Assembly: GCA_016840465.1 (NCBI GenBank)
Contig: JAEOSH010000007.1
Span: 30,202 to 62,201 of the forward strand
DNA length: 32,000 nt
Source: Candidatus Baldrarchaeum yapensis
Lineage (GTDB): Archaea > Asgardarchaeota > Baldrarchaeia > Baldrarchaeales > Baldrarchaeaceae
Reading direction: 5' to 3'
Shown here piece after piece: positions 10,085-11,841 of the stretch. Each line of letters starts with the position of its first letter. Positions within the stretch are counted from its first letter, which is position 1. Under the pieces are notes generated by a model that was not told the DNA's origin, ran no database searches, and worked only from the letters and a program-made list of their open reading frames with translations. A program made the translations under genes and the position numbers.

Positions 10085-10480
10085 TTATCGTCTTCTCCTT
10101 CTCCTTCTTCTCCTTCTAGTAATACTTTTCGTAACCTTCTTTTCTTCGGTTATAGGCTCTCCTCTTTCTATTTTCTCCACAATCTCCCTTATGTGGCTCA
10201 TGCTCTTCTCCAAACCATCGTTTCCCTTTATGAAAACACATGTTACTTCCATTTCTTTGATGAAAGCCGCTATTGAGAACTCATCAAACGCAATGAACCG
10301 GGGCTTCGGCTTATCAAGGCTTCCACCCATGAACCACAAATAAATGTTCACGAAGAGGTCCTCTATGTTCACATTGAAGTTTTCATCGAGTTTTTTGACT
10401 TCTTTGAGCACAGGACCCTGCTCTATATCGAAGTCTATCTTTACGATCGCCGCTATGTCTTTGACACCAAACTCAAACAC
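10085..10480 (-). CDS. Small longin/uDENN-like domain protein with a C-terminal poly-Arg tail
   Basis: N-terminal IVKIDFDIEQGPVL (FDxxxGP) and an apparent bb-a-bbb-a hydrophobicity pattern. GTG start directly follows the GTPase stop, with a GGAGGTGA SD. The fold call is by eye. Confidence 0.6.
   Translation of the reverse strand: MFEFGVKDIAAIVKIDFDIEQGPVLKEVKKLDENFNVNIEDLFVNIYLWFMGGSLDKPKPRFIAFDEFSIAAFIKEMEVTCVFIKGNDGLEKSMSHIREIVEKIERGEPITEEKKVTKSITRRRRRRRRRR
10088..10117 (-). repeat. AGA/AGG/CGA low-complexity tract encoding 10 consecutive Arg
   Basis: AGA AGG AGA AGA AGG AGA AGG AGA AGA CGA TAA read directly on the minus strand. Confidence 0.9.
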
Positions 10481-10963
10481 TCACTTCACCTCCAGTGCCA
10501 ATTTTTTGAACTCCTTCATGAGGATGTGATACATTTTCACTCTCTCACGAGGGTCTATTGCCACAAGACCATACGTGGGAACTTCTAATAAATCTTGCAC
10601 ACGGTTCGGCTTCATCGCACCTGGGAGGTCCTGCTTATTCGCAATCGCAATTACACGGTATCCGTCAATTTTCTTTAACTCCTCTAGTATTTTCTTCGAC
10701 TGCAGAACATTCACGGGAGTGCTATCGGTCACCAGGATAACAAGGGTGCTCCCCTTGAGTATCTGGGGCCATAGAGTCCGAAACCTCTCATGCCCCGCTA
10801 GGTCGAAAAGCGAAACCTCATGCTCTCCGAATGATATTTTCCCGAGGTCAAAGCCTATAGTTGGTCTATATTCGAGCGGAGGTGGAGCACCGGTCAACAA
10901 TTTTATTATTGTCGTTTTACCAACCCCCGGTAGTCCCACGAAGCTCACTTTCACTGTGCCCAT
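10481..10963 (-). CDS. Ras-superfamily small GTPase, Arf/Sar-like
   Basis: G1 GLPGVGKT, G2 PTIG, G3 DLAGH followed by ERFRTLW, G4 NKQD in an Arf-like ANKQDLPGAM, and G5 VAI. Confidence 0.93.
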   Translation of the reverse strand: MGTVKVSFVGLPGVGKTTIIKLLTGAPPPLEYRPTIGFDLGKISFGEHEVSLFDLAGHERFRTLWPQILKGSTLVILVTDSTPVNVLQSKKILEELKKIDGYRVIAIANKQDLPGAMKPNRVQDLLEVPTYGLVAIDPRERVKMYHILMKEFKKLALEVK

Positions 10964-11031
10964 GTAGACCCCCTCTGTAAGACCGAACCCATCAATTTAA
11001 GAGTAGGTAATAGTAAGAAAGCAGGGTGAGA

Positions 11032-11367
11032 ATGTTGGAAGAGTACGCCGAGAACCAGTTAACACGACGCGAGAAGATAATGAAGATACTAGAGGAATCG
11101 GACCACTTCATGACGGTAGATGAACTTGCGTATATACTAGAAATCAAAGGAAAGGAGCGAAGGAGGCTATACGAGGACATAACGCACGTTGCCAAGAGCG
11201 TAAGGGCACTCTCGCAGGGAAGAAAGATTCTTGTAATGCAACCCCCTCAATGCAGAAAGTGCGGGTTCGTTTTCACAAACTTAAAAAAGCCGTCGAAACC
11301 TAGAAGATGTCCCAAATGTTATTCAACGTGGATAGAACCCCCAAAGTTCAAGATAGTTAAAAGATGA
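11032..11367 (+). CDS. Predicted transcriptional regulator with wHTH and Zn-ribbon (COG3357-like)
   Basis: TRREKIMKIL HTH start and PPQCRKCGFVF...PRRCPKCYSTWIEPP. ATG 11032 follows a GGGTGA SD. Confidence 0.85.
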   Translation: MLEEYAENQLTRREKIMKILEESDHFMTVDELAYILEIKGKERRRLYEDITHVAKSVRALSQGRKILVMQPPQCRKCGFVFTNLKKPSKPRRCPKCYSTWIEPPKFKIVKR

Positions 11368-11377
11368 AGTTGTATAA

Positions 11378-11713
11378 CTAGAATTTCCTCCTAAGTACAC
11401 AGAGGTACATATCTTCCTCCGTTGCTATAACTATTTGCTTCTCCTCGCCCCTCTCATTTACAAAATCGACTATCACAAAGAGCAACTTGCCCAGATTTAA
11501 CTCGTTGGCGGCCCTTCGTGCCTCCGTACTAACACTCTTCACATGAGCGGCGAGCGCCTCGGCGTGCGAAGTCTTAAGGGTGGACTGTAAGGGGAACCCC
11601 TCGTCATCAACTACAAGTACACCTTCGACTCCTCTTTCACGTGATAAGTTCTCAAGAGTCTTCTGCAAGGCTATCGGCAATAATAGATAACTTGAGTCTC
11701 TCTCGTCGCTCAT
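11378..11713 (-). CDS. Roadblock/LC7 (MglB/LAMTOR-like) domain protein
   Basis: LENLSRERGVEGVLVVDDEGFPLQSTL...AEALAAH...ARRAANELNLGKL is the typical roadblock a-bb-a-bbb pattern. Start at ATG 11713. Confidence 0.88.
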   Translation of the reverse strand: MSDERDSSYLLLPIALQKTLENLSRERGVEGVLVVDDEGFPLQSTLKTSHAEALAAHVKSVSTEARRAANELNLGKLLFVIVDFVNERGEEKQIVIATEEDMYLCVLRRKF

Positions 11714-11841
11714 AGGAACCCCTTGCACCACACTGAGTGTTCTTTTTACAATTAGTAACAATACCTTAATATAATGTGCGCTCCATCTACAATCAACGGA
11801 AGGTGTATTACCGATAAAGTAGTGGGACGGGGTGAGCAGTT

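Follow-up and report, generated by a model that had tools for sequence, protein, structure and literature searches.

Longin and roadblock domains are well known as platforms for small GTPases, and Asgard archaea are rich in them. To our knowledge, all longin and roadblock proteins whose contact with a small GTPase has been characterized bind at its switch face, in a manner that depends on the nucleotide. Here we describe an operon of two genes from Candidatus Baldrarchaeum yapensis, encoding an Arf-family small GTPase and a 131 amino acid (aa) partner with a predicted longin-type fold, in a window of 32,000 nucleotides of contig JAEOSH010000007.1 (positions 30,202 to 62,201 of the forward strand; coordinates below are those of the window). 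In Asgard genomes, NPRL2-like longins are abundant, and an operon consisting of a LAMTOR1-like roadblock, a Rab-like GTPase and a DENN-domain protein has been described (Liu et al., bioRxiv 10.1101/2020.10.19.343400). For longin complexes acting as GTPase-activating proteins (GAPs), a survey from 2025 located a Gly-Pro (GP) motif in the loop, or at the beginning, of the second strand, adjoining the arginine finger; the motif was present in FLCN, NPRL2, SMCR8 and C9orf72 and also in some Asgard longins, and according to the survey it is missing from FNIP2, NPRL3, adaptins, TRAPP and DENND proteins (PMC12290439). The client GTPases of the GP-motif Asgard longins are an open question (PMC12290439), and native regulators of Asgard Arf GTPases are unknown (Zhu et al., PMC11914678). 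In strain MK-D1, GTPases are reported to lie generally outside operons with longin or roadblock genes, so that gene layout cannot match partners (Tran et al., PMC10933270), and a preprint on Arf in Asgard archaea contains no neighborhood analysis. A literature search that did not cover all journals found no description of the present pair and no mention of its MK-D1 members QEE16607 and QEE16608, which may be described elsewhere.

The proposed pair is comparable to C9orf72-SMCR8 (an Arf1 GAP) and to FLCN-FNIP and the GATOR1 subunits NPRL2-NPRL3 (Rag GAPs) in that the target of a longin domain is, or in the window pair would be, a GTPase of Arf or Rag type. In contrast to these heterodimers, the partner consists of one 105-residue domain and lacks their DENN and C-terminal domains, and the operon holds no gene for a second longin subunit; unlike their longins it has neither an invariant Arg finger nor a profile match and is fused to a winged helix-turn-helix (wHTH) domain or a basic tail. 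MglA-MglB is likewise a prokaryotic system in which the gene of a small GTPase adjoins that of a small alpha/beta-sandwich protein, MglB being a GAP that supplies no Arg finger; however, MglB has the roadblock order, with a helix before beta1, and acts as a dimer at the cell poles, and the window GTPase is Arf-type rather than MglA-type. In the actinobacterial conservon, CvnB is a roadblock protein, CvnC a DUF742 protein and CvnD a GTPase. The conservon shares with our loci a recurring trio of small GTPase, roadblock-superfamily protein and winged-helix-like protein, the last two being fused in most partner lineages, although its GTPase belongs to a different family and no sensor kinase gene lies beside the window pair. 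The SRX domain of SR-alpha is a longin-fold domain that binds the GTP form of the Arf-like GTPase SR-beta, and the window GTPase reaches 24.9 bits against Pfam SRPRB (cut-off 25); yet the window GTPase has no transmembrane anchor, the partner has no NG domain, and SRX was not among the top structural matches. Closer to home, FLCN/SMCR8-type and NPRL2-like Asgard longins carry the GP motif and have raised the question of their GTPase clients (PMC12290439; bioRxiv 10.1101/2020.10.19.343400). The partner carries the motif too, whereas its family gets no NPR2 or Folliculin profile match. The operon of Liu et al. is also a conserved Asgard GTPase operon with a longin-containing partner, compared with which the window pair is a stripped-down form, having a GTPase without a roadblock part and a one-domain partner.

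Conservation of the GTPase-partner gene pair

A reading of the window made from its sequence alone had described the first gene as an Arf/Sar-like GTPase, an assignment that the profile searches bear out. The protein scored 70.1 bits against Pfam Arf (PF00025; cut-off 22.3), and its closest solved relatives were Arl8A/B (1.7e-16), followed by other Arf/Arl proteins and Asgard Arf GTPases. Its nucleotide-binding motifs (G1 GLPGVGKT, switch I PTIGF, G3 DLAGH and G4 NKQD) belong to a pattern in which G1, switch I, DLAG and NKQD are conserved across an alignment of 28 orthologues. The catalytic Gln that follows DxxG is not present in the window GTPase, where His takes its place (DLAGH); His is also found at locus L055 and Gln in the other 26 aligned orthologues. 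Sar1 likewise has His instead of the usual Gln. Since only four residues precede beta1 (4–10 in most orthologues), the clade lacks the Arf-type N-terminal amphipathic helix, which N-terminal analysis did not find in the window GTPase or its clade. A search of the same genome with a profile of the orthologues placed the window gene best at 221 bits, followed by two paralogues fused to extra N- or C-terminal domains (about 138 bits) and about seven further Arf/Ras-like genes at no more than 75 bits.

The gene arrangement was re-read in the sequence as originally described. The GTPase stop codon TGA (10481–10483) immediately abuts the GTG start of the partner gene at 10480, and a Shine-Dalgarno-like sequence lies within the 3' end of the GTPase gene (Table 1). 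The partner begins with MFEFGVKDIAAIVKIDFDIEQGPVL, and its GTG start is supported because this N-terminus aligns end to end with homologues. Coupling of the two genes, which the sequence-only reading had proposed from the abutting stop and start, extends to relatives, in which overlap is the norm: in a scan of 80 loci, the gap was −4 nucleotides in 43 loci and −11 in 20.

The gene immediately upstream of the partner gene, on the same strand, encodes a GTPase of the same subfamily as the window GTPase in 29 of the 30 loci of the largest family (f9), in 14 of the 17 loci from ten further families and in 79 of the 80 loci from the independent scan, which used species-representative genomes; the single misses in the first and last sets fall at contig ends. 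Over all other loci, drawn from nine further families, this amounts to 122 out of 127, a count dominated by the family f9, and the coupling of GTPase and partner is far beyond chance. About three quarters of the 80 scanned loci carry an organism label, in every case Promethearchaeota/-archaeia or Candidatus Asgard, the rest being deposited as “uncultured archaeon”; with relatives labelled Promethearchaeota and Baldrarchaeia, the suggestion of an Asgard host was borne out. The pair is present in closed genomes of cultured Asgard archaea. In Promethearchaeum syntrophicum MK-D1, QEE16608.1 (“ADP-ribosylation factor-like protein”) is followed by QEE16607.1 (“winged helix-turn-helix transcriptional regulator”), and Lokiarchaeum ossiferum carries the pair with UYP48675.1 annotated as hypothetical. 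Harpocratesius repetitus was also among the genomes with pair genes named by exact look-up.

Some features of individual loci were recorded alongside. At three Lokiarchaeial loci, a protein of about 270 aa with a weak DUF3786 match is encoded convergently just downstream of the pair (L004:350-1168, L006:414-1238 and L007:2089-2901). One partner gene (L044) was deposited as “DUF977 family protein [Candidatus Deferrimicrobium sp.]” (HUX98066.1), a non-Asgard label on an Asgard-type locus, and its contig is probably mis-binned or mislabelled. Divergent from a solitary 150-aa partner homologue, a 143-aa protein (L054:3607-4038) has, judging by its sequence, a longin/roadblock look.

Fold, conserved motif and C-terminal module of the partner

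The 131-aa partner matches nothing in Pfam. A word-indexed search from this one sequence returned no relatives besides the partner itself, a sequence search found 12 relatives among 1.84 billion protein representatives, and a profile search extended the family to 525 clusters at 90% identity, of which all the named ones came from Asgard metagenome-assembled genomes (Promethearchaeota labels) and none had a precomputed Pfam domain. The family occurs in 164 of 400 Asgard genomes with an uneven distribution, being found in 122/135 and 13/14 genomes of some families and in 0/86, 0/31 and 0/22 of others. It escaped earlier surveys. No profile recognizes its longin domain, and annotations call the gene hypothetical or a wHTH regulator.

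An AlphaFold2 model built from an alignment of 45 relatives (mean pLDDT 80.9, pTM 0.72) superseded a poor single-sequence model (pLDDT 54) and reproduced the bb-a-bbb-a pattern that had been read from the sequence, with strands at residues 9–18, 22–30, 62–64, 68–75 and 78–85 and helices at 39–51 and 91–105. The order of elements, with no helix before beta1, is that of a longin rather than a roadblock domain. A Foldseek search of the model against the PDB gave weak scores (E ~5e-3, TM ~0.5, probability 1.00), and each of its 50 best matches was a longin or a roadblock protein (LAMTORs, MP1/p14, AP sigma, zeta-COP, TRAPP, DENND1B, and roadblock and longin structures from Asgard archaea). VIA, a structure search independent of Foldseek, matched the partner to the BLOC-3 longin with a Z score of 8.6 (rmsd 3.4, 105 aligned residues) and to MP1-p14 with the same Z score, followed by Asgard roadblocks (7.8–8.4), TRAPP (7.2–8.1), MglB, Mon1-Ccz1 and CPLANE (each 7.3–7.8), AP sigma (7.5) and a Lokiarchaeal longin (7.1). 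Among AFDB clusters and in the Atlas, the partner's own family came first and then “FUZ/MON1/HPS1 first longin” clusters, TRAPP and AP sigma; a Schizosaccharomyces pombe Npr2 homologue appeared at rank 28 among Swiss-Prot models, and row 10 of the Atlas fold search was a 271-aa Arf-containing cluster. As a lead only, the nearest named cluster in an Atlas language-model search (score 0.89) is NPR2-positive in 19% of its members. On the predicted model, the partner is securely of the longin-type fold class. The earlier description of the partner as “longin/uDENN-like” thus stands in its longin part, and a strict uDENN assignment is not borne out: no cDENN or dDENN is found in the partner, which ends after one longin domain and the tail (relatives adding a wHTH of about 60 residues), and profiles of DENN, Longin and NPR2 gave no match. 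A search for fused GTPase-partner proteins of at least 350 residues found none, which is weak evidence.

Conservation was examined in 224 distinct family members, a sample dominated by one family. Residues G22, P23, Y47, F50, G53 and P60 are invariant, and D18 (223/224) and F17 (220/224) nearly so. Arg61 occurs in 202/224 members and is replaced in some lineages by K, M, L, Q or V; a basic residue occupies position 75 in 196/224 (88%; Lys in 131 and Arg in 65). In the model, F17-D18-x3-G22-P23 runs from the end of beta1 to the start of beta2, with G22-P23 opening the second strand. The PDB sequences of C9orf72 (W33-D34-N-I-L-G38-P39) and NPRL2 (F15-H16-P-T-L-G20-P21) read WD-x3-GP and FH-x3-GP, respectively, so that an aromatic-polar-x3-GP spacing is common to both proteins and to the partner family (FD-x3-GP), with GP at the start of beta2. 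As read from its sequence, the catalytic Arg78 of NPRL2 would sit in the turn before the last strand, a position to which the beta4-beta5 turn of the partner, with Lys75, may be equivalent in the order of elements rather than by superposition. The usual sheet order of the longin fold is 2-1-5-4-3. Because the elements concerned share one sheet end in this order, the hairpin tip, Pro60-Arg61 at the start of beta3 and the beta4-beta5 turn may form one conserved surface.

The C-terminal module varies between lineages. In most members the longin domain is followed by an acidic linker and then by a winged helix of a DNA-binding type, about 60 residues long, which matches wHTH families in Pfam, some over the cut-off (HTH_11 7e-8; HTH_5 1e-7, 23.7 bits; HTH_DeoR 1.3e-7, 27.6 bits). 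A polybasic tail or basic helix replaces the winged helix in the window partner, its closest relative and the Baldrarchaeia forms. The closest relative (P0002; 55% identity) has a poly-Arg/Lys tail like that in the window, KRKRRKRRRRRR, and another relative from Baldrarchaeia (P0003) ends in a basic helix. Two further lineages (f15 and f10) carry a different C-terminal domain with a helix-hairpin-helix-like look (IRGLGPKR), for which a PDB profile search gave just E ~1 to Pol X and the Atlas no match. What the winged helix and the ten-Arg run are predicted to have in common is binding to a polyanion, with nucleic acid the first candidate; the basic tail could still bind acidic lipids. On the plus strand, the AGA/AGG purine repeat that encodes the ten Arg appears as a T/C tract directly after the stop codon of map. 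Judging from the repeat itself, its length could change by slippage.

Proposed mechanism and alternative readings

We consider it probable, on balance, that the two proteins are a cognate GTPase and a longin-platform regulator, with GAP activity favored, whose C-terminal module tethers the complex to a polyanion. The GTPase and the partner would then form a two-gene switch, co-transcribed and translationally coupled. The conserved end of the partner (the FD-x3-GP hairpin, the GG loop after helix 1, Pro60-Arg61 and the basic residue in the beta4-beta5 turn) would dock on the switch face of the GTPase in a nucleotide-dependent manner, as characterized longin and roadblock partners do, and the partner would stimulate or help GTP hydrolysis. 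Through the variable module, a winged helix in most lineages and the ten-Arg tail here, the complex would be anchored to nucleic acid or to some other polyanionic surface. A GAP role is favored because the GP motif has so far been reported in GAP longins only and because basic residues lie at the same sheet end. Physical binding, the docking surface, GAP over exchange-factor or effector activity and the ligand of the tail are what we infer; co-folding of the GTPase with partner residues 1–110, in which no control folded, scored 0.00 in both runs and speaks neither for nor against a complex.

Several observations weigh against this proposal. The fold scores are middling (Z 7–9, Foldseek E ~5e-3) and do not separate GAP-type longins, guanine nucleotide exchange factor (GEF)-type longins and roadblocks. 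No longin-type Pfam family (Longin, NPR2, Folliculin or Fuz/Mon1) was among the matches listed for 45 members and nine extra homologues, the NPR2 model found no match in a scan of the Baldrarchaeum genome, and a profile of the family against the PDB listed no longin among 38 chains at E up to 10, with the C-terminal wHTH matched weakly. There is no strictly conserved Arg finger among the 224 members, residue 75 being Lys more often than Arg. The locus counts are not independent. Finally, in a Baldrarchaeia sister family (L002, L003 and L156), the partner adjoins the PF0610-like gene and map with no GTPase between them, and the partner gene of the closest relative (L160) has the same surroundings, again without an adjacent GTPase, so the partner does not strictly need an adjacent GTPase gene; distant homologues of 130–150 aa in two other families are also solitary. 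This absence of the GTPase in three lineages is what speaks for the adjacency being meaningless, a mere packing of unrelated genes, which is scarcely credible when adjacency with overlap is kept over 10 families and more than 120 loci.

The lack of a conserved Arg finger would also fit an effector, a minority possibility in which the GTP-bound GTPase binds the longin domain and in this way turns on, or turns off, the attachment of the wHTH or poly-Arg tail to DNA or the nucleoid. The pair would then amount to a transcription or chromatin factor gated by a GTPase, with a parallel in SR-beta, for which SRX is a plain GTP-dependent binder. The matches of most C-terminal domains to DNA-binding wHTH families over Pfam cut-offs, the annotation of the MK-D1 copy as a transcriptional regulator and the absence of a membrane anchor from the GTPase clade all agree with such a role, but winged helices also serve protein-protein contacts, the window partner itself has no wHTH, two lineages carry a different domain in its place, and the invariant GP motif points to catalysis-linked longins. 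It is unlikely that the partner, probably as a dimer, is instead an exchange platform like the first longins of Mon1-Ccz1, BLOC-3 and Fuzzy-Inturned, or like TRAPP or Ragulator. GEF activity is the commoner activity of longin platforms (PMC12290439), and the BLOC-3 longin as top VIA match, the scores of Mon1-Ccz1 and CPLANE and the nearby “FUZ/MON1/HPS1 first longin” clusters lean in this direction; however, these Z scores are tied within one unit with those of roadblocks and AP sigma and so carry no subfamily signal, and non-GAP longins are reported to lack the GP motif (PMC12290439).

The sequence-only reading had also counted the roadblock gene, with a weaker link, as a member of the module, and a three-part arrangement, in which this protein is a second regulator of the same GTPase, for example an MglB-like GAP, is very unlikely. 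The gene lies on the same strand 0.4 kb upstream, roadblock genes are sparse in the genome (nine in 2.27 Mb), so that proximity is not trivially expected, and in the sister family a roadblock orthologue shares a 13.5-kb contig with the partner gene. Yet a convergent opposite-strand gene intervenes, and no homologue of the window roadblock was found within the fetched 1.5–3 kb of the pair in the other loci (0/127). The sister-family orthologue (genome G004; 55% identical) abuts a different Arf/SRPRB-like GTPase, whose orthologue in the Baldrarchaeum genome lies on another contig (C64:16774-17319) amid four roadblock genes (C64:15537-17712). We therefore judge the roadblock gene to be a neighbor and not a member of the module.

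What remains of the earlier interpretation as an “endomembrane or nutrient-sensing” switch is likewise reduced. The membrane-traffic reading is weakened by the C-terminal wHTH or poly-Arg module of the partner and by the absence of a membrane helix from the GTPase, whose clade lacks the N-terminal helix.

Neighboring genes, paralogous modules and significance

Table 1. Features of the GTPase-partner locus and its neighbors (window coordinates).
Feature	Positions	Strand	Remarks
Longin-type partner, 131 aa, GTG start	10085-10480	-	Residues 9-105 predicted longin-type domain, then basic tail
Ten consecutive Arg codons (AGA/AGG/CGA), C-terminal polybasic tail of partner	10088-10117	-	
FD-x3-GP motif codons of partner (F17-D18-I-E-Q-G22-P23)	10412-10432	-	Predicted beta1-beta2 hairpin
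Arf-family small GTPase, 160 aa	10481-10963	-	Pfam Arf 2.1e-19
Shine-Dalgarno-like GGAGGTGA within GTPase 3' end	10486-10493	-	5 nt before partner GTG
Intergenic region, 62 bp, between GTPase operon and PF0610-like gene	10964-11025	.	Divergent
PF0610-like winged-helix and Zn-ribbon protein, 113 aa	11026-11367	+	Divergent from GTPase operon
Roadblock/LC7 gene, 111 aa from ATG	11378-11713	-	Pfam Robl_LC7 5.2e-13

The surroundings of the pair, including the roadblock gene upstream on the same strand and the opposite-strand gene between them, were re-read as first described. The operon is flanked by a methionine aminopeptidase gene (map; convergent, with the stop codons touching) and a gene for an Lrp/AsnC regulator. 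On the minus strand of the divergent intergenic region, a TTAAAT box and a GAGGGGG ribosome-binding site precede the GTPase ATG, and from these elements the region may hold the promoter of the operon. The roadblock open reading frame extends over 11378–11761 on the minus strand with a probable ATG at 11713; its product scored 49 bits against Robl_LC7 (cut-off 23), and its best solved relative is the Odinarchaeota roadblock 7f8f (9.7e-10).

The PF0610-like gene matches PF0610-like_N (3.3e-12) and Zn_ribbon_PF0610 (5.7e-12). It adjoins the partner gene in the Baldrarchaeia-like order (window, L002 and L003) and is not adjacent to the partner in 110 loci of other lineages; at one locus (L051), a copy lies 1.7 kb from the pair. 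The lineages with this adjacency are exactly those whose partner lost the fused winged helix. Going by adjacency, the PF0610-like protein may regulate the operon or replace the lost winged helix. As a trans-acting wHTH it was not retained, the case consisting of a generic wHTH similarity (E 0.01) and adjacency in one order.

A larger paralogous module, with genes overlapping on one strand, was observed elsewhere in the same genome (L063, C76:39978-43451). It encodes, in order, a 351-aa protein with a WD-x3-G longin-like start, a 276-aa fusion in which a roadblock/longin-like N-terminal domain precedes a same-subfamily GTPase, a protein of 180 aa, and a longin-like protein of 303 aa that weakly matches DUF742, HTH_47 and NPR2. 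The 351-aa family occurs in 145 of 201 Asgard genomes, often in several copies, and the module may correspond to the roadblock, GTPase and DENN operon of Liu et al. Homology of the partner to this family of 351–398 aa was considered and rejected, the hhalign alignments being in register and not significant (E 0.032, 0.3 and 0.035). In the Baldrarchaeia sister family (L156, G004 C18:1-13475), the gene directly downstream of those for the GTPase fusion and a 398-aa longin-like protein, with which it overlaps, encodes a protein of 2026 aa with Ig-like, Invasin_D3 and CarboxypepD_reg domains; this hints at a surface or giant-protein output of the paralogous module.

Longin and roadblock platforms for GTPases are already known; to these the present locus adds a conserved operon in which an Arf-like GTPase is joined by a GP-motif longin, found only in Asgard-labelled records. 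Kept with overlapping genes in 10 Asgard families, this constant operon singles out one specific pair of GTPase and longin, a testable candidate for a native regulator of eukaryote-like Asgard GTPases with named proteins in MK-D1 and L. ossiferum. A wider reading, which we hold as doubtful, is that an Arf-family clade off membranes gates, with a GP-motif longin, a nucleic-acid-binding module (a winged helix in Lokiarchaeia, MK-D1 among them, and the poly-Arg tail in the window partner), the Arf and longin-GAP pairing predating trafficking and nutrient sensing. If this were true, the original role of the pairing, in Asgard archaea, would have been to regulate genes or the nucleoid. The pair bears on the origin of the eukaryotic longin-GAP systems C9orf72-SMCR8, FLCN and GATOR1.

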